Assembly (NCBI GenBank): GCA_029258915.1
Contig: JAPDJU010000012.1
Span: 53,149 to 117,148, forward strand
DNA from: Thermoproteota archaeon
GTDB lineage: Archaea; Thermoproteota; Thermoprotei_A; EX4484-217-1
Length of the DNA: 64,000 nt
Reading direction: 5' to 3'
The position numbers and the translations under genes are program-made. This document shows, piece by piece, positions 13,537 through 53,858 of this stretch. The notes under the pieces were generated by a model. It saw nothing but the letters and a program-made list of their open reading frames with translations. It did not search any database and was not told the DNA's origin. How positions within the stretch are numbered: position 1 is the stretch's first letter; each line of letters opens with the position of its first letter.

Positions 13537-15537
13537 TTATTGTATTTTTATGTCCCACTTTATTCCTATGATTTCTTCTTCTTTCCATAGAAATCTTTGC
13601 CAATATTCTTTAGCTGCTTCTACACCTTCTTTGATTAATTTTTCATACCATTTCTCTGCTCCATATTCTTTAGCTGCTAAGGTAAAGTAGTCTATTATTC
13701 TCTTACTTTCCCAGAAAACTGGTTTATAACCTGCTTTCTTATCATATTCTACTATTCTTCTTAAAAGTTCTTTATTGTGTTCATCCATGTTTACCTCTAT
13801 TCCATAGGCTTCTTCTATGAGTTTAGGCAGTATTTTTTCTCCCCATCCTCTATGGAACCTGCATAGTCCTCCTTCTTCAGAGTATAACTCCTTAAAAGCT
13901 CTTCTAATCGCTTTTACTGCTAAATCTTCAGGCTCCATAAATATTCCATGATAGTATGTTAGATATTTCCCTATTATCGGTAATGGCATTATATTTCCAG
14001 GACCCCAATACATTGCCGGTGTTAAGCTTCCATCAGGGCCGAACGGTACGTAGATTGCTATATCTTCGAATTTGAGATTTTCTCTTCTAACGTTTTCTTC
14101 AAACATTTCATCTAATTTTTTAGCTGCTCTTCTAATACCTTCACCAATTACCTTATAAGCTTCTCCTGCTCCAAAAGCTAGCTTCCAAGCTATTGTTTTA
14201 ACAATTTCCGCATTATGTTGAGACAGCTCTTTAACCTTAGTTAAGTCATAGTATAGTTTATGATCAAAGTATGGTTTGCTCTTCAATCCTAAAGCTTCAA
14301 CAGGTATTAGGTTTCTATGAACTGCTTCTAAAATCCATGAAACTGTATTTCCGAATTCTATGGCATCATAACCCATAGCATCTATTACGTCTACTACTTC
14401 AACTGCTACATCTAAGTCTAAAACACCTGTATTAGCTGTACTTGCACAGTATGGTTCATAGTCTATTTTATATCCTTTATACATTTTCTTACAAACAGCA
14501 ACACATGGTTCGTCACATGTCCTCCAAAGTCTCTTAGCAATACTTAACTCATTAAATGGTTTAACATAAACCTCATTAATAACTTCCTTGAAGAACTTCT
14601 TTCTTTCCTCTTCACTCCAATAAATATATGACCAATTAAATGTCGGGTTTAAGCCGTTATAGTATGCATAGTTATTTCCGAATGTACCTCCGGATTTTGT
14701 TTTGGGATCATATCTATACTTTACTGTAGCATTCATTAATACAGTGTTCATAGGGTTACCTAATAGTTTTTGAAATACATTGTTAAGTACTTTAAAGTTT
14801 GAAAGATCCGTTTTCGGAAACTTATGTTTTTTAACGTAGCTTCCTCCATAAACTATAGCTGCAACCTTATGTGCTCTATAAAGTACTGATCCTGGCCCTC
14901 CTCTTGCAGAATACTCTACGGGCTTACCTTTGAAGTTAAAGTCTCTCGAAGCATAAGACATTAGTGCACCATTCCTCGTATATACTGATGCAGGACCTAC
15001 AGTTATTATTCTTACAGGAACTTTACCGTAGAAATCGCTATAGTTGTCTACAATATAGTGTGCCAACGCAAAGCCACCGCATGACTCTTTATACTTCTTA
15101 AATATTTCTATAAGTTTTTCCTCAGCCAAATGTTCAAAACGTATTTTAATTTCTCCTGAAGGCTCAGATTTCATAAGAATTATTGCTGGTTCCTTAGCTT
15201 TACCTTCTATTGCAGCATAGTCTACGCCTAAATATCTGAAAACATATGCTGCGCCGCCCATGCTTGATAGGAAGAAGCCGCCCCATAATGGTGATCTAAA
15301 AGTGAAAACTAGCCTTCTTGTACCTGAAATTTCACTCCAGCTTAAAAGACCTGCCCCGAGACATAGCACATTATGTTCATCAAATATTGAATAATCGTAG
15401 CTCCTATATTTTACAAGATGGCAGTGAAGACCCCAACTCACTGGTCCAATTATGCTTCCATTCGTATCTTCTATGTGAAAAGTTTCTTTTGAAACATTAA
15501 TTACTAAGGCTTTACCTACCATAGTATTGACCTTCAA
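13537..15537 (-). CDS. gor: Glyceraldehyde-3-phosphate:ferredoxin oxidoreductase (W/Mo-pterin AOR family)
   Basis: FRSPLWGG..SSMGGA, ARGGPGSVL, KYRYDPK..GGTFG, CDEPCVAVCKK, DAMGYDAIEFG, MYWGPGN and CRFHRGW are GAPOR-typical motifs. Confidence 0.92.
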   Translation of the reverse strand: MKVNTMVGKALVINVSKETFHIEDTNGSIIGPVSWGLHCHLVKYRSYDYSIFDEHNVLCLGAGLLSWSEISGTRRLVFTFRSPLWGGFFLSSMGGAAYVFRYLGVDYAAIEGKAKEPAIILMKSEPSGEIKIRFEHLAEEKLIEIFKKYKESCGGFALAHYIVDNYSDFYGKVPVRIITVGPASVYTRNGALMSYASRDFNFKGKPVEYSARGGPGSVLYRAHKVAAIVYGGSYVKKHKFPKTDLSNFKVLNNVFQKLLGNPMNTVLMNATVKYRYDPKTKSGGTFGNNYAYYNGLNPTFNWSYIYWSEEERKKFFKEVINEVYVKPFNELSIAKRLWRTCDEPCVAVCKKMYKGYKIDYEPYCASTANTGVLDLDVAVEVVDVIDAMGYDAIEFGNTVSWILEAVHRNLIPVEALGLKSKPYFDHKLYYDLTKVKELSQHNAEIVKTIAWKLAFGAGEAYKVIGEGIRRAAKKLDEMFEENVRRENLKFEDIAIYVPFGPDGSLTPAMYWGPGNIMPLPIIGKYLTYYHGIFMEPEDLAVKAIRRAFKELYSEEGGLCRFHRGWGEKILPKLIEEAYGIEVNMDEHNKELLRRIVEYDKKAGYKPVFWESKRIIDYFTLAAKEYGAEKWYEKLIKEGVEAAKEYWQRFLWKEEEIIGIKWDIKIQ

Positions 15538-15628: not shown

Positions 15629-16495
15629 GTGGGGTCGTATATGATTGGTCGAAAAACTCTAATCTACTTTTTAACTGCAATATTAATTATGGTGTTGATA
15701 TTGACATACATTACTCTACTCAAAAAACCTACTGAAACTACTATGCAAGTAGAAGCAACTTATTCTCTTAAACCTATACCCTACGTTGAAATTTACGTGC
15801 TAAACGATAACTATGAGTATGATGATTTTCTTAGCGACTGGGGTGTTTCATTCCTCATTAAAACACCTAACAACACTTTCCTATTTGATACTGGTCCAAG
15901 CGCTTACACCTTACTTTACAACGCTGAAAAATTGGGTCTAAATCTAAGTAATGTAGAGTTCATAGTTATTTCCCATAGTCATGGAGACCACACCGGTGGT
16001 TTAGAAGGCCTAGGGCGGATACTTAGAGGAAGAAAAGTTTACATACCTTCAGGTGCAGGTTATGGTTTATCTTCATGGATAGAGAATTTAGGTTTTGAAG
16101 TAGTTAAAGTCAATGAAACAACGGTTATTGCCCCGGGAGCTGCTATCATTGGAGAGCTATATGGTCCACCTTGGGAGCAAGCTCTCGCTATTTACGTTGA
16201 AAATAAGGGGCTCATTATACTTACTGGCTGTAGTCACCCAGGTGTTGAGAATATTGTTGAGAAAGCTACTAAGGAATTAAACATTAAACCATACTTGGTG
16301 ATTGGCGGTTTCCACTTAGCCGGAGCTTCGGAAAGTAGAATAAGAAACACTATAAGTAAACTACTAGCTTTAGGAGTTAAGAAGATATGCCCAATACATT
16401 GTAGCGGAGATAGAATTAGAGAAATTTTAGCTAACAATTACCCCGAAGTTTACGGAGATGGGCATGTAGGTTTAGTTTTGAAAATAAGTAAATAA
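15629..16495 (+). CDS. MBL-fold metallo-hydrolase with N-terminal membrane anchor
   Basis: FLFDTG, SHSHGDHTGG, EQAL, TGCSHPG, GGFHL and HCSG, plus a hydrophobic N-terminal helix. Confidence 0.88.
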   Translation: MGSYMIGRKTLIYFLTAILIMVLILTYITLLKKPTETTMQVEATYSLKPIPYVEIYVLNDNYEYDDFLSDWGVSFLIKTPNNTFLFDTGPSAYTLLYNAEKLGLNLSNVEFIVISHSHGDHTGGLEGLGRILRGRKVYIPSGAGYGLSSWIENLGFEVVKVNETTVIAPGAAIIGELYGPPWEQALAIYVENKGLIILTGCSHPGVENIVEKATKELNIKPYLVIGGFHLAGASESRIRNTISKLLALGVKKICPIHCSGDRIREILANNYPEVYGDGHVGLVLKISK

Positions 16496-16504
16496 GTAAA
16501 AAAG

Positions 16505-16732
16505 CTACCATTTAGCTTGCCTAAACCCTCCTCTCATACCCCACTTTTTTCCTCTTCCTCTACCCTTATCCACTCTTATAATTGTTGGTGCTCCACATTT
16601 AGGACATTGCATTGGCCTAGGGGTTCCGTAAGGGACTGTAAACTGGTATCCGCAGCTTAAACATTTAAAGACCCTATATCCTCCTGGAGGACCATGGTAT
16701 CCCACAGGTTCCGCCTCAAAACTGCGGTCCAC
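16505..16732 (-). CDS. Small zinc-ribbon protein with G/R-rich tail
   Basis: FKCLSCG..VPYGTPRPMQCPKCG followed by GRGRGKKWGMRGG. Confidence 0.75.
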   Translation of the reverse strand: MDRSFEAEPVGYHGPPGGYRVFKCLSCGYQFTVPYGTPRPMQCPKCGAPTIIRVDKGRGRGKKWGMRGGFRQAKW

Positions 16733-17063
16733 TTTTCCTCCGCTTAACTATTTCCCTAAGCTCCTTAATTCGTTCCTCGACACTTTTCAGCTCGTCTTGC
16801 AGGTCTCTTAAGTCTTCCTCTAATGCTTTCTTATAGTCTTCAAGCATTGCTAATTCTTCTTCAGGCGTCATAGGAGGTGGTGGAGGCATAAAGTACGGCA
16901 TCGGTGGGTATGGTGGATACTGTGGTGTTGGCTGCGTTTGCTGTTGTGTCTGTTGCTGCTGCGTAGGCGGCTGATACGGGTAGGGTTGAGGATAATACGG
17001 CATTGGTGGGGGCATGTATCTCCAAAATCTCCTATACCATCTAAACCATGACATACTGTTCAC
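16716..17063 (-). CDS. DUF5320-like protein: P/Y/Q-rich region plus coiled coil
   Basis: PYYPQPYPYQPPTQQQQTQQQ.. then TPEEELAMLEDYKKALEEDL..LKSVEERIKEL. Confidence 0.75.
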   Translation of the reverse strand: MNSMSWFRWYRRFWRYMPPPMPYYPQPYPYQPPTQQQQTQQQTQPTPQYPPYPPMPYFMPPPPPMTPEEELAMLEDYKKALEEDLRDLQDELKSVEERIKELREIVKRRKSGPQF

Positions 17064-17095
17064 CGTGTTATATTGATGCTTCCTTCTATTTCTTC

Positions 17096-17302
17096 CTATT
17101 TAGTAACGGCTTGCTCTAGAGACTTAGTTATTGCTTCGAAAGCTTTTCTCCAAGCATCTAGAGCTACTCTATATGCTTCAATATAAAACATCCAGTAATA
17201 GGGGTATATCATCCACTGAAACGCTGTAGCCATTAGGTACATTGGGTCATAGGGTAGGGGATATGTTGGGGTATATGGTGGATACCAGTACCACCAATAC
17301 AT
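17096..17302 (-). CDS. Small Y/W/P-rich hypothetical protein
   Basis: 68-aa ORF inside a tightly packed operon, with a GGGG SD-like sequence upstream. Confidence 0.7.
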   Translation of the reverse strand: MYWWYWYPPYTPTYPLPYDPMYLMATAFQWMIYPYYWMFYIEAYRVALDAWRKAFEAITKSLEQAVTK

Positions 17303-17308
17303 CCCCTA

Positions 17309-17593
17309 TCACCACCACGGGTAGATTCCAGGATAGGGAAATGAGTAGTATGTTGGGAACCAATAGTATGACGACGGATAGTATGGATATCCATATAGTG
17401 GATAGTACCATCTAAAGCCCCAAGGCCATCCGAAAAGCCACCAGCAAGCTCCTCTACCAAAGTACCATCCAGGTCTTTGCCATGGTGGAAGATAGCTGAA
17501 TGGTCCTCTACCAGGCCATGGCCCTGTCCAACCCCATCTCCAACCTCCTCTACCCCATCCACCTCTCCAACCAAACCATGGTGCCCAAGCCAT
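17309..17593 (-). CDS. Small W/G/Y/P-rich low-complexity protein
   Basis: GWRGGWGRGGW..GPWPGRGPFSYLPPWQRPGW.., with a GGTGA SD upstream. First gene of the operon. Confidence 0.75.
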   Translation of the reverse strand: MAWAPWFGWRGGWGRGGWRWGWTGPWPGRGPFSYLPPWQRPGWYFGRGACWWLFGWPWGFRWYYPLYGYPYYPSSYYWFPTYYSFPYPGIYPWW

Positions 17594-17631
17594 ATTTTCA
17601 CCATTTAAAGTAGAGGTTCTGGGAGAATATA

Positions 17632-17655
17632 AATTTTGTGCATTTGCACAAAATT
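17632..17655. promoter_or_regulatory. Perfect palindromic operator between divergent genes
   Basis: AATTTTGTGCA-TT-TGCACAAAATT (11-bp arms), abutting the minus-strand TATA (TTTATATT) of the small-protein operon. Confidence 0.7.
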
Positions 17656-17712: not shown

Positions 17713-18915
17713 ATGAAACAGTATGGTGAAACGTGGGCTAGTATTATATTGTTAATTGCTGCCGGCTTTATAGGAACTTTAGGTTTTAGATCATCCATAC
17801 CCGTAATTGCTTTTTTAGGTAGAGACGTTTTACAATTATCAGCATTCCTAGTTTCGTTCTTTTACCCAGGATATATGGTTTCGAGAGCATTATCTTCAAT
17901 AACTCTAGGATATATTGTAGATAGAGCTCCAAGGGTAATATATTTAGTGCCTTTATTTGCTGCTGTTTTCGCGCTAACCATATACTGCTATGTTTACGCA
18001 GATAACTGGGTATTTATAGTACTGCTCCGTATGGTTCAGGGGTTCTTAGGTGGATGTATATGGCCTCTAGTACAATATTTGGTAGCTCAAATTTCACCTC
18101 AAAATCTGAAGGGCAGAATATTATCAGTCTATTTTGCTCTAGGCTCCGCGGGTATTCTTCTAGGTAATGTGGTTTACGCTACAATTGTAGATTATCCTTT
18201 AAGCCGTAAATTAGCTATTTCGACATCGTTTTTCCTAGTAGCAGCGCTGTTTATGCTTACAGCCATATACCTTACTAGGCAAAGGATTGTTTATTATAGG
18301 CGAAGAGAGCAGAGAAGCAGGATTAGTTTTGAACGTCCAGTACTTTATGTCGTCTTTTCAGGTTTCCTCTTAGCTTTATGTGTTGCTTTTGCATTTGGAG
18401 ACATAGTTTATATTTATGTTTCAGAAGTGCTATCATTAACGAGATCTGATACTGCTTTACTTTTAGCTTTTTGTAGCGGTTTAAGTATTTGCTTTAGCTA
18501 CATTATAAGCTGGTTTGCAGATAGGGGGTATGAAAGAGAAACACTAGCCTTAACTTACATTCTGGTAGCTGCTTCCATACCGCTAATATCTATCGGAAGC
18601 ATATACATACTTCCATTAGGCTTGACCTTAGCTCTAATATCTATTAGAGTTTTTCATCCTCTTTCAAGGAGGTACATAGCTTTACATTGCTCAATGCCGG
18701 CCACAGGGATTGGAGCCGTAAATATGGCTACGAATCTGGGAATATCCCTGGGGCTAATAGTTTTCAGTAGAACATATGATTATCTTGAAAATATTAGAAC
18801 AATATTTTTAGGTTTAAAAATAAATTACGCGCCATATGTGCTTCTAATATTTGCTATTCTACTAATAGTACTCGCGATTAAACTTTTAACAGCTAAGAGG
18901 ATAGGAAATGTTTAG
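17713..18915 (+). CDS. MFS transporter
   Basis: About 12 hydrophobic segments, GYIVDR, LLRMVQG and WFADRG motifs. Confidence 0.88.
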   Translation: MKQYGETWASIILLIAAGFIGTLGFRSSIPVIAFLGRDVLQLSAFLVSFFYPGYMVSRALSSITLGYIVDRAPRVIYLVPLFAAVFALTIYCYVYADNWVFIVLLRMVQGFLGGCIWPLVQYLVAQISPQNLKGRILSVYFALGSAGILLGNVVYATIVDYPLSRKLAISTSFFLVAALFMLTAIYLTRQRIVYYRRREQRSRISFERPVLYVVFSGFLLALCVAFAFGDIVYIYVSEVLSLTRSDTALLLAFCSGLSICFSYIISWFADRGYERETLALTYILVAASIPLISIGSIYILPLGLTLALISIRVFHPLSRRYIALHCSMPATGIGAVNMATNLGISLGLIVFSRTYDYLENIRTIFLGLKINYAPYVLLIFAILLIVLAIKLLTAKRIGNV

Positions 18916-18961: not shown

Positions 18962-19285
18962 TTAACCTACTATCATTATTGGTCTTCTCTCTATAATAGC
19001 TTGCACTAGTTTTCTACGTCCACTACTTAAAGTCCTCCATAAAGTCCCTCTAGAAACACCCATTCTCTTAGCGGCTTCCTCTTGAGTAAGTCCCTCGAAA
19101 TAAACGAGCCTCATAGCTTCAACTTCATCAGGTGTAAGCTTTAGAGGCTCATTATTTATGGGATTACCTGCTTCGTCAAAAGGTATAAACGTTAGCTTAA
19201 ATGGAGGAAAGCCTATTGTTCTAGGCTTAGGTGGTCTGCCTGGACCTCTTCTACACCATCCCCAGCGCCAACCTCTGCGGTGCAT
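18962..19285 (-). CDS. DUF134 (UPF0251) HTH DNA-binding protein
   Basis: GRPPKPR..LTPDEVEAMRLVYFEGLTQEEAAKRMGVSRGTLWR..GRRKL. The start is taken at ATG 19285. Confidence 0.9.
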   Translation of the reverse strand: MHRRGWRWGWCRRGPGRPPKPRTIGFPPFKLTFIPFDEAGNPINNEPLKLTPDEVEAMRLVYFEGLTQEEAAKRMGVSRGTLWRTLSSGRRKLVQAIIERRPIMIVG

Positions 19286-19460
19286 GATAAAAACCCCATT
19301 CAAGGTATAACATTGTTTAAGCACATATTAATATTTGGGGGAGCTATTGAAGCTTAAGCTTTAAATAAGCATTACAGACCCTAATCTACTTATAATGCTG
19401 AGAATTTAATCATGTATTTTAGGTATTGTTTAAACTTTTCTAAGTAAACTATTTCTCAGG

Positions 19461-20852
19461 GTGAGCTATTTTATGGTGAATTTCGACATTCTAATAAAGA
19501 ACGGTTTAGTTGTCACAATGGATTCTAAAAGAAGAGTTATTGAGAAAGGATATGTCGCTATTGTTGGCGACAGAATTGCCGAAGTCGGTAAAGATTCTTT
19601 GGATAAGTCTGCTGAGAAAGTTATTGATGCTAAAGGAGCTATTGTAATGCCGGGAATTATATGTGGTCACACACACCTATACGGTATTTTGCTTAGAGGC
19701 TCTCCATGGTTCGCCAAAATAGAACCTCCAACAGACTTCATCCAGAACCTTCATCGTATATGGTGGGCTATGGATGAAATAATGAACTACGATGATGCCT
19801 ATGCTAGCGCATTAGCAGCATCCTTTGAAATGATGAAGTCTGGTGTAACACTTTTTGCAGACACGTTTTCAGGACCTAATGCTATTGAAGGTGTTCTAGA
19901 TAGAATAGAGGAAGCTGTTAAAAAAGTGGGTATTAGGGGAATTATAGCTTTTGAGGCAACTGAAAGGCATAGTAAAGAAGAGGGCGAAAGGGGGATAAAA
20001 GAAAACATTAGATTTATTGAGAGAGTTAGAAGGGAGAAAGACCCATTAGTCACAGGGATGATAAGTATTCATGCATCATTTACTGTTACAAACTGGTTAC
20101 TAAAGTGGGCTAGAGAACTAGCCAATAAGTATGAAGTACCTATAACACTACATACATCAGAGGGTCTAGTAGACCCGTACCATAACCTTGAAAGATATGG
20201 TATGAGGACTTTCGAAAGATTATATAGGGTAGGTCTTCTAGGACCTGATGTTGTAGCTGTTCATGCTGTCCATGTTATTGATGATGAGTTAAAACTTATA
20301 GCTAAGACAGGAACAAAAATAGCACATAATCCACTAAGTAATATGCTTAATGCCGTAGGAGCACCGCCAATACATAAAATGTTAGAAATGGGTATAACAG
20401 TAACAATAGGTAATGATGGATACATTTTTGATCCCTTCGAAAACATTAGAGGAGCATATTTGCTAGCTAAAGTAGCATTCAGAGATCCAAGACTAATAAC
20501 GCCTTTAGAAGCAATAGAAATGGCAACAATAAACGGGGCAAAAGCTTATGGATTAGAAGATAAGCTTGGATCCTTAGAGCCAGGTAAGAGAGCAGACATA
20601 ATAATTGTAATGCCTGAACTCATGCCAACGCCGTTAAATGCAGAAACAGTTTACGGACACTTAGTAAATACCATAGATGGCGATGATGTAAAAACGGTAA
20701 TAGTTAACGGAAAGATCATTATGGAAAACAGGAAATCATTAACAATATCTGAAGAAGAAGTAAATAAGATATCACAAGAAATTGCAGCAAAATTCTGGAA
20801 AAGACTACTAAGCAAGGGAGAACACCAGTTAGACATAGTTAGACTGGAGTAA
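19461..20852 (+). CDS. ssnA: SsnA-like amidohydrolase (purine ring opening)
   Basis: CGHTHLYG, PPTDFIQNL..IWWAMD, FEATER..GIKENIRFI, HASFTV, HTSEG and HNPLSNM follow the SsnA pattern. Confidence 0.75.
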   Translation: MSYFMVNFDILIKNGLVVTMDSKRRVIEKGYVAIVGDRIAEVGKDSLDKSAEKVIDAKGAIVMPGIICGHTHLYGILLRGSPWFAKIEPPTDFIQNLHRIWWAMDEIMNYDDAYASALAASFEMMKSGVTLFADTFSGPNAIEGVLDRIEEAVKKVGIRGIIAFEATERHSKEEGERGIKENIRFIERVRREKDPLVTGMISIHASFTVTNWLLKWARELANKYEVPITLHTSEGLVDPYHNLERYGMRTFERLYRVGLLGPDVVAVHAVHVIDDELKLIAKTGTKIAHNPLSNMLNAVGAPPIHKMLEMGITVTIGNDGYIFDPFENIRGAYLLAKVAFRDPRLITPLEAIEMATINGAKAYGLEDKLGSLEPGKRADIIIVMPELMPTPLNAETVYGHLVNTIDGDDVKTVIVNGKIIMENRKSLTISEEEVNKISQEIAAKFWKRLLSKGEHQLDIVRLE

Positions 20853-53108: not shown

Positions 53109-53858
53109 ATGTATGAACAAAAGTTACTTACAACGAAAGCTACTAAATGGATTGCATTAGCTGGTAGTATTATATCTTCTATCGAAAATGCCTATGAAAT
53201 TCTAAGCATCAATAATACATATGTTGACAGTGTTTTTTATCAGTATGATGAATGGGTTCCCGGAAGCGAAATAGTAATTTCAGTAAGAGAATATGAGGGG
53301 AAAATAAAGGACTTTAAAGAACTACTTAACATTGATGAAAGCCTAGCAAAACCAATACTGACTAGCAGAGCATCACCTAACGCCACATATCACTGGAAGA
53401 CACTGTATAATAGAGTTTTAGAAATTTTCTTCAATAACATTGTGGATTATTTAAAATCAAAAACAATTATAACGAATTCTAAACGCACGGAATACATGTT
53501 AATAGTGTCTAAGAGAGGAGAAGGTGTAATCTTACAGGGAGATGTAAACAAGATAAGAATACCTAGAGTAAAGGCATGGCTAATGGCTCACACTCATCCA
53601 AGCCCTTACAGTTTCTTTTCAGCTAAGGATATTGAGACTACTAGAGATCTTTTTGCAAATCAAGGGCTTTTAAGTGCTGTGGTTACTTCAATATCTACCT
53701 GTGTACTTTATAGATGCAGTGACATGGATGTCAGTGATTATGAAAATCTTATAATTGTAGAACGTAAATTAGCTAAAGGCAAAATAGGTGATGCTCTAAA
53801 GGTAATGGGTAAATTAAAAAATGTCAAACTTATAGTTAAAGGGTTACCGGGTTTATAA
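53109..53858 (+). CDS. Protein with C-terminal JAB/MPN+ (JAMM) metalloprotease-like motif
   Basis: E(YML)...HTHPSPYSFFSAKD matches H-x-H-x7-S-x2-D. Confidence 0.6.
   Translation: MYEQKLLTTKATKWIALAGSIISSIENAYEILSINNTYVDSVFYQYDEWVPGSEIVISVREYEGKIKDFKELLNIDESLAKPILTSRASPNATYHWKTLYNRVLEIFFNNIVDYLKSKTIITNSKRTEYMLIVSKRGEGVILQGDVNKIRIPRVKAWLMAHTHPSPYSFFSAKDIETTRDLFANQGLLSAVVTSISTCVLYRCSDMDVSDYENLIIVERKLAKGKIGDALKVMGKLKNVKLIVKGLPGL

Follow-up and report, generated by a model that had tools for sequence, protein, structure and literature searches.

The operon and its coding evidence

The 64,000-nucleotide stretch analyzed here (the window: positions 53,149 to 117,148 of contig JAPDJU010000012.1, assembly GCA_029258915.1, from a Thermoproteota archaeon) carries four small open reading frames (ORFs) on the minus strand, ORF1 (17309..17593, 94 aa), ORF2 (17096..17302, 68 aa), ORF3 (16716..17063, 115 aa, probably 112 aa), and ORF4 (16505..16732, 75 aa), which form the operon under study. 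By their sequence features, ORF1 corresponds to the N-terminal half of the DUF5320 family without its coiled coil, ORF3 to the C-terminal half with the coiled coil, ORF2 to a small stand-alone helical family, and ORF4 to a predicted CxxC-x15-CxxC zinc ribbon followed by an RG-rich tail. The set is preceded by a conserved palindrome at the ORF1 promoter and lies near a DUF134 gene, its candidate regulator.

The composition of these products is unusual. ORF1 contains W (19%), G (18%), P (16%), Y (15%), F (7%), and R (7%), with 41% of its residues being W, Y, or F, and it has seven Arg, no Asp or Glu, a single Cys (Cys50), and a pI of 9.8; the Trp share in long ORFs of the same genome is 1.1%. 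The aromatic content of ORF2 is 31%, ORF3 contains 23 Pro and 13 Gln ahead of a charged helix, and ORF1, ORF2, and ORF3 together contain one Cys. The GC fraction of the operon reaches 0.42–0.49 against 0.357 genome-wide, which is due to the TGG, GGN, CCN, and CGN codons that such proteins require.

The signals around the starts and stops are tightly arranged. A GGTGA ribosome-binding site lies at 17598–17602 ahead of ORF1, whose stop codon TGA sits within a second GGTGA ahead of ORF2. GGTGA also precedes the ATG at 17054 (MSWFRW) that serves as the ORF3 start in orthologs, and because the upstream GTG at 17063 falls inside this ribosome-binding site, ATG 17054 is the most likely start in the window as well. 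ORF4 begins with a GTG after GGAGG and shares its first 17 nt with the 3′ end of ORF3, and a run of six T residues lies 3′ of it. When codons were compared pairwise with those of up to six orthologous loci, nonsynonymous differences (pN, 0.09–0.36) stayed far below synonymous ones (pS, 0.51–0.95) for all four ORFs in every comparison, and an Rfam search of the window returned no match. A previous sequence-only reading of this DNA had described four packed ORFs in one operon, an aromatic/Gly/Pro-rich first product, and a region richer in GC than its surroundings; the ORF list, the residue counts, and the GC fractions bear out this description, and the low pN relative to pS, together with the coupled junctions, confirms that the four ORFs are real genes in one tightly coupled operon.

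Distribution and gene order

Related loci were collected through a one-genome-per-species scan, in which 310 pattern matches were obtained, 250 confirmed, and 80 loci kept; the counts given below refer to 81 loci (the window excluded), 82, or 88, and at least three loci duplicate the DNA of others (L085 and L004, L087 and L002, L012 and L007). The kept loci span Desulfurococcales, Thermofilales, Bathyarchaeia, Nitrososphaeria, Methanomethylicia/Culexarchaeia, and Korarchaeia, as well as Hadarchaeota, Methanocellales, Thermococci, and one Asgard metagenome-assembled genome. The order ORF1-ORF2-ORF3 was the arrangement in 25 of the 81 loci, five of which also carry ORF4, followed by ORF1-ORF3 without ORF2 (19/81), ORF1 alone (15/81), ORF3 upstream of ORF1 with or without ORF2 (11/81), ORF1-ORF2 only (6/81), and a single-chain fusion of ORF1 and ORF3 (5/81).

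Within a set of 41 related genomes, ORF3 was detected in 11, the ORF1 profile in 14, and DUF134 in 12. ORF1 and DUF134 occurred together in 11 genomes, ORF1 only in three, DUF134 only in one, and neither in 26, a co-occurrence that does not amount to a statistical test because these genomes are kin. The genome that contains the window has one DUF134 gene, one ORF1-type gene, and two NifX-like genes. DUF134 and DUF5320 both have a wide distribution among anaerobes, archaeal as well as bacterial, and a literature search for DUF5320, DUF134, and UPF0251 returned passing mentions and no functional study.

ORF1 and ORF3 as the halves of a split DUF5320

DUF5320 (Pfam PF17253) is an uncharacterized family of proteins of roughly 90–130 aa from anaerobes. 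A database search with ORF1 yielded 293 relatives at E ≤ 0.01 among 340 candidates, and their alignment revealed a near-invariant core of about 30 residues rich in W, P, G, and R, GPWPGRGPFSYLPPWQRPGW-x2-GRGACWWL, which bears the single conserved Cys. In ORF1 this core follows an RG/W-rich start and precedes a Y/P/W tail. Many of the relatives, from Bathyarchaeia and other groups, are annotated as PF17253 and carry the core N-terminally and a coiled coil C-terminally, the ORF1 core being identical to the N-terminus of such annotated archaeal proteins. ORF1, ORF2, and ORF4 gave no match to PF17253 in the Pfam search, in which ORF1 and ORF2 matched no family at all, and only 5 of 65 ORF1-type proteins matched it.

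ORF3, on the other hand, consists of a W/R/Y N-terminus, a P/Q-rich linker, and a coiled coil, PEEELAMLEDYKKALEEDL...VEERIKEL, and it matched PF17253 over residues 59–94 (E 2.6e-4, 22.5 bits), under the gathering cut-off of 27 bits. Among its orthologs, 30 of 36 matched the model at E ≤ 1e-3, the best at 4.2e-8, which backs the DUF5320-like coiled coil formerly proposed for this protein. Because the ORF1 core equals the N-terminus of PF17253 proteins and ORF3 supplies the coiled coil, ORF1 and ORF3 are, judged by their sequences, the two halves of a split DUF5320. The likeness to the single-chain family lies in the coiled coil of ORF3, which fits the C-terminal part of the model, and in the DUF134 gene beside which both forms are located. 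The differences are that the G/R-rich single-Cys motif and the C-terminal coiled coil are found here in separate genes with ORF2 in between, that ORF1 has the Y/P/W tail in place of a coiled coil, and that a W/R/Y head and a P/Q linker are added in ORF3. The AlphaFold2 (AF2) model of ORF1 had a mean predicted local distance difference test score (pLDDT) of 49.9, i.e., no confident fold was predicted. A motif shared by the N-termini of ORF1 and DUF134 (GWRWGW...GPGR) was considered as a sign of homology and rejected, as hhalign gave a probability of 5% over eight columns, and we regard it as a likeness of composition.

ORF2 and ORF4

ORF2, present in 40 loci, has an aromatic/Pro head and is predicted to continue as one long helix over residues 20–67 (AF2 mean pLDDT 81.6), the first half of which is aromatic-hydrophobic and the second amphipathic; W51 is invariant in the family alignment. 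The ORF2 profile found 45 matches at E ≤ 1e-3 among 1.84 billion representatives, all of them short, the few longer ones being over-extended ORF calls. In the ESM Atlas, ORF2 reached unnamed archaeal clusters at 0.84–0.85 and a PhaR-like row at 0.79, all under the level that counts. Its reading as a membrane protein was discarded, since the maximum 19-residue Kyte–Doolittle hydropathy (KD19) of 0.78 is not transmembrane-like. A separate 173-aa protein (P0165) with four QENYKQMTEMWKKGFEGF-like repeats is a weak match (E 2.3e-5) to the amphipathic section of the ORF2 profile; the resemblance may be compositional or may hint at a phasin-like helix that coats surfaces.

The two Cys pairs of ORF4, C24-x2-C27 and C43-x2-C46, are conserved and are followed by the tail GRGRGKKWGMRGG. 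An alignment judged by eye gave the family pattern KF-C-x2-CG...E(V/I)P-G-PKP-x2-CP-x-CGAP plus an RG tail, in agreement with the zinc ribbon and RG tail originally suggested for this product; the match to Zn_ribbon_8 (E 1.9e-5) and all other Pfam and NCBIfam zinc-ribbon matches fall below their cut-offs. In two Methanocellales loci (L083 and L086), a DUF134 protein that is otherwise canonical ends in the ORF4 module (phmmer E 7.7e-12 and 8e-10), a fusion that may be taken as a Rosetta-stone link between ORF4 and DUF134, drawn from two related genomes. A search for longer relatives of ORF4, itself a weak one, returned no fused form. Also in the loci L015, L018, and L040, which are of the Methanomethylicia/Nitrososphaerota type, a PF0610-like protein with a winged helix and a rubredoxin-like zinc ribbon recurs about 1.5 kb upstream of ORF1 and matches ORF4 weakly (E 1e-4 to 8e-4).

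A palindromic operator at the ORF1 promoter

The region between ORF1 and the divergent gene for a major facilitator superfamily (MFS) transporter contains a perfect 20-bp palindrome, TTTTGTGCATTTGCACAAAA (17634..17653, core 17637–17650, assigned to neither strand), of the form TTTTGTGCA-NN-TGCACAAAA. Read on the ORF1 strand, it is immediately followed by TTTATAT (17627..17633, minus strand), a TATA-like element read from the sequence about 34–40 nt before the ORF1 ATG, and the junction ACAAAATTTATAT was found in many loci. The exact core GTGCA-NN-TGCAC lies upstream of ORF1 in 20 of the 82 loci, and these 20 contain no other copy of it. Within −220 to +40 of the ORF1 start, the 12-position core was matched at 10/12 or better in 64 of the 82 loci, compared with 14 among 1608 random windows of 260 nt drawn from these loci, and among the 48 sites of at least 11/12 in the 800 kb of these loci, 43 were located at the ORF1 promoter. 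Three layouts were observed, i.e., the palindrome followed by the TATA box, the TATA box followed by the palindrome, and sites flanking the TATA box on both sides, which is the geometry of a factor that would compete with or contact TBP/TFB. The three genomes that have ORF1 and in which no DUF134 was found lack a TGTGCA-type site, and the intergenic region between the metallo-β-lactamase (MBL) and aldehyde ferredoxin oxidoreductase (AFOR) genes of the window contains no site of at least 8/12.

Only four sites of at least 11/12 occur in the 1.6-Mb genome that contains the window, where three shuffles gave zero, five, and three. One of the four is the ORF1 promoter and another lies on contig 11. 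On contig 10 (L107, 32105–32118), a TauE/SafE sulfite-exporter-like gene has the 11/12 site TTTTGTGCAACAGCACACAAA 16 nt upstream; the gene is split into three consecutive ORFs (62, 94, and 87 aa), suggesting either a frameshift or an error in the assembly. Contig 6 (L106) has a 57-aa double-CxxC zinc-ribbon ORF (120244–120417) with a perfect 12/12 operator core at 120482–120495, 65 nt past its stop codon, and the next gene, 215 nt on, encodes a family-2 glycosyltransferase. On contig 1 (L089:1193-1794), an ORF of 88 aa with three Cys in its N-terminal part, an Arg-rich tail that ends in WW, and no Pfam match overlaps the start of a 115-aa NifX-like gene; 33 nt upstream of this Cys-rich ORF, which heads the NifX-like operon, is an operator-like site of 10/12 that we consider suggestive as a sequence match. 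In L102, L103, and L105 (genomes G023 and G009), the DUF5320-type gene is preceded by other palindromes, e.g., TGAAATATATTTCA, and not by TGTGCA-NN-TGCACA, which suggests that operator and regulator changed together in some lineages.

DUF134 as the candidate regulator

The candidate regulator is a DUF134 (PF02001) helix-turn-helix (HTH) protein encoded at 18962..19324 on the minus strand (E 6.6e-20, 71.9 bits, above the gathering score), which also matches Sigma70_r4_2 (E 3.5e-10). Its likely start is the ATG at 19285 (MHRRGWRWGW...), and it is present as a single copy in the genome. In the window the gene lies 1.4 kb upstream of the operon with the MFS gene in between, and in the sister genus it sits directly upstream of ORF1, in the place taken here by the MFS gene. 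DUF134 was found in 50 of the 81 other loci. This adjacency, the co-occurrence with ORF1, and the ORF4 fusion make DUF134 the candidate binder of the palindrome. Small HTH repressors with a palindromic operator overlapping the archaeal core promoter are a general type, and the locus resembles them in that the palindrome abuts or flanks the TATA box and an adjacent or divergent HTH gene is present; it differs in that binding by DUF134 is putative here. A literature search returned no published DNA site or regulon for DUF134. The N-terminal half of DUF5320 in ORF1, the fusion of ORF4 to DUF134, and the conserved palindromic operator are features that the sequence-only reading did not include.

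Recurrent neighbors and domain fusions

The genes within 5 kb on either side of ORF1 were counted in 82 loci, and NifX-like domains (PF02579) over all 88. DUF134 formed the cluster found in the most of these neighborhoods (52 loci in the BLAST clustering), followed by the NifX-like family (66 ORFs in 45 of 88 loci), MinD/CbiA ATPases with 4Fe-4S ferredoxin motifs (33 loci), and MBL hydrolases like the one in the window (22). DtxR and an ATP-binding cassette ATPase were each detected in nine loci, a radical S-adenosylmethionine protein in eight, AFOR in seven, FeoB and EncFtn-like proteins in six each, FeoA in five, and NifU_N and ZnuA in four each.

Domain fusions connect the module with the NifX-like family. 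An ORF3-like head with its coiled coil is joined through GYGWGRGRG to a NifX domain in seven loci (L088, L041, L026, L043, L023, L011, and L051), the reverse order of a NifX domain, GMGRG repeats, and a DUF5320 coiled coil occurs in six (L039, L042, L083, L086, L073, and L030), and an RG-rich N-terminal tail on the NifX domain is found in many loci. The presence of DUF134 in 50 of the 81 related loci supports the earlier placement of the cluster in a DUF134/DUF5320 neighborhood of anaerobes, and the synteny across archaea that had been singled out as worth checking was indeed observed, with gene order kept across families. The metal link that had been raised in general terms can now be narrowed, as iron–sulfur (Fe–S) specifically fits both the conserved neighbors and the domain fusions.

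Comparison with IssA and the orange-protein complex

Two described systems share parts of this pattern. IssA (SipA, PF2025) of Pyrococcus furiosus is described as a thioferrate iron–sulfur storage protein that consists of an IPR003731 domain and a 70-residue tail, Pro-rich at first and then cationic, aromatic, and Gly-rich, which holds the only Cys, is proposed to bind or wrap the anionic thioferrate polymer, and is said to be conserved only in its chemical character (PMC5524996). The likeness of ORF1 to this tail is one of composition, as far as the tail is described there (Pro, W, G, R, and a single Cys). A further likeness is that NifX/IssA-type domains are the commonest functional neighbors of the module and are fused to ORF3-like coiled coils and RG segments. 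By contrast, ORF1 to ORF4 carry no IPR003731/NifX (PF02579) domain in the Pfam search, and the ORF1 core is kept residue by residue, whereas the IssA tail is, by that account, kept only in character. Thioferrate-like iron is reported to form still in Pyrococcus without IssA (PMC8219758), and IssA homologs to rise together with FeoB and DtxR in pyrite-grown Methanococcus voltae (PMC8516115).

The orange-protein (ORP) complex of Desulfovibrio vulgaris Hildenborough comprises the MinD-ferredoxin ATPases Orp3/4, the NifX-like Orp8, and Orp9 (MrpORP), encoded in operons that depend on sigma-54 and OrpR, respond to redox potential, and have a role called unclear by the authors (PMC6345978, PMC8359166). 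MinD ATPases with Fer4 motifs and NifX-like families surround the DUF5320 module in 33 and 45 related loci, respectively, and both are systems of anaerobes with unsolved function. They differ in that the Desulfovibrio operons are described as driven by sigma-54/OrpR and not by DUF134, and in that neither the window nor its genome has an Orp3/4-type gene. The excerpts of the two ORP papers contain no mention of DUF5320-type proteins (PMC6345978, PMC8359166).

Proposed role of the module and alternatives

With some reserve, and at a little less than an even chance, we favor the reading that the operon is an accessory or scaffold module of IssA/ORP-type Fe–S handling, switched at the palindrome, likely by DUF134 together with ORF4. 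In the mechanism that would follow, the operon would encode a split aromatic-rich DUF5320 (ORF1 and ORF3), a helical adaptor (ORF2), and a detached DUF134-type zinc ribbon (ORF4), and its transcription would be controlled at the 20-bp palindrome abutting the TATA box, whose most likely binder would be the neighboring DUF134 HTH protein, perhaps with ORF4. Assembly of the cationic, aromatic products would probably rely on the coiled coil of ORF3 and on the long helix of ORF2, and the products of ORF1 to ORF3 might then serve as accessory or scaffold proteins of NifX-like Fe–S storage or trafficking, e.g., by binding or organizing anionic Fe–S material as proposed for the W/G/R-rich tail of IssA. 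The action of DUF134 as binder and repressor, the physical assembly, and the Fe–S role are all steps that we infer.

Several observations weigh against this reading. The near-invariant ORF1 core argues for a specific partner and is ill-suited to the loose electrostatic binding envisaged for the IssA tail, ORF1 to ORF3 have just one Cys among them, and the neighborhood could reflect shared regulation only. The genome that contains the window has no MinD-ferredoxin ATPase of the Orp3/4 type, a genome-wide search giving only ferredoxin-domain matches, and neither of its two NifX-like genes is linked to the operon. A weak search for longer relatives of ORF1 returned three longer forms, none with a NifX domain. 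As for the operator, the 10/12 level of the NifX-like site on contig 1 is reached by about 1% of random 260-nt windows, and the DUF134 promoter in the window has no site of at least 8/12. Furthermore, in two loci or lineages DUF134 is adjacent but palindromes of other types stand in place of the TGTGCA type; given these other palindromes beside DUF134, its part as binder is one that we infer from adjacency.

The same near-invariant core, suggesting one specific and conserved protein partner, also counts in favor of a purely regulatory module, the main alternative, realistic though doubtful, in which DUF5320 (ORF1 and ORF3 with ORF2 as a bridge) would be a co-regulator or anti-repressor of DUF134, ORF4 would be its detached sensor or DNA-clamp zinc ribbon, and the operon would form the feedback arm of a redox or iron switch instead of a structural Fe–S component. 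The DUF134–DUF5320 pair is the constant core of the neighborhood and persists here without ORP-type ATPases, the operator is nearly confined to the DUF5320 promoter, the ORF4 module is joined to DUF134 in L083 and L086, and the predicted lack of a confident ORF1 fold is as expected for a motif that folds on binding. This is opposed by the coiled coil, which is repeatedly fused to NifX-like Fe–S domains and not to DNA-binding domains, by the three genomes with ORF1-type genes in which no DUF134 was found, and by the hhalign comparison (probability 5%), in which no relation between the N-termini of ORF1 and DUF134 emerged. The regulatory alternative and the Fe–S scaffold are not mutually exclusive. 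A bolder version of the latter, which we think unlikely, would make the split DUF5320 the matrix of an intracellular iron-sulfide (thioferrate-like) phase, with ORF3 and ORF2 as a phasin-like coat, the ORF1 core and its Cys capping or nucleating the polymer, and DUF134 with ORF4 reading out the fill state at a pan-archaeal operator. If true, it would represent an ancient Fe–S storage and homeostasis system separate from SUF/ISC and ferritin, and it could explain the thioferrate-like iron reported in Pyrococcus without IssA (PMC8219758).

Self-assembly with possible RNA binding, as the sequence-only reading inferred, would here mean small RGG- and aromatic-rich proteins that demix or build amyloid-like structures and bind RNA or G-quadruplexes. 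This would agree with the RG- and aromatic-rich, cationic ORF1 and ORF4 tail, with the predicted disorder of ORF1, and with a motif search that flagged an RG-type quadruplex-binding motif in DUF134 and DUF5320 proteins of a Hadesarchaeon (PMC7565180); that hint is a motif match, no RNA-related gene recurs among the iron, Fe–S, and metal genes nearby, and low-complexity condensate drivers seldom show the residue-by-residue conservation seen in the ORF1 core, which makes this explanation improbable. An association with a cell-division or envelope structure, drawn by analogy with the Desulfovibrio ORP complex, appears highly improbable: the ORP papers call the complex "putatively involved in cell division" and place MrpORP at a pole (PMC6345978, PMC8359166), and the predicted ORF2 helix, aromatic-hydrophobic and then amphipathic, could lie on a surface, but no segment is hydrophobic enough for a transmembrane span (maximum KD19 0.78), no division or envelope gene recurs nearby, and the ORP authors, in the same texts, call the role in division unclear. 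That the ORFs are chance frames in a GC-rich stretch, or remnants without function, is scarcely credible; low-complexity sequence and an overlapping 123-aa ORF in another frame of the same strand would speak for it, and it is already contradicted by the purifying selection in the annotated frames, the conservation of the proteins across archaeal phyla, the synteny, the ribosome-binding sites, and the coupled stops and starts.

The locus offers a defined candidate operator for the DUF134 family, its split architecture places the invariant W/P/G/R motif and the coiled coil in different proteins, and the fusions tie the coiled coil to IssA-type Fe–S domains and the zinc ribbon to DUF134. Should the Fe–S reading be true, the way in which anaerobes store and traffic iron and sulfide (the IssA and ORP systems), so far poorly understood, would gain components and a regulator.

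Flanking genes of the window

The genes flanking the operon, i.e., those for an MFS transporter, an MBL hydrolase, and the pterin enzyme GAPOR, had been taken by the sequence-only reading as the context of the module, and this holds in part. The MBL-fold hydrolase (15629..16495, plus strand), which obtained no specific NCBIfam assignment, recurs widely, with homologs in 22 of 82 loci. The MFS transporter gene (17713..18915, plus strand), which is divergent from ORF1 and shares with it the operator-bearing intergenic region, is lineage-specific and does not appear among the 40 largest neighbor clusters. The AFOR-family GAPOR-like tungstopterin oxidoreductase (13537..15537, minus strand) matched GAPOR_Arch with 623 bits, below the equivalog cut-off of 1300 bits, and its seven loci belong to this family and its close relatives only. 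Beyond DUF134, and divergent from it, lies an amidohydrolase gene (19461–20852, plus strand) whose best match is SsnA (387 bits, below the cut-off of 444 bits), a family of putative selenium-metabolism aminohydrolases.

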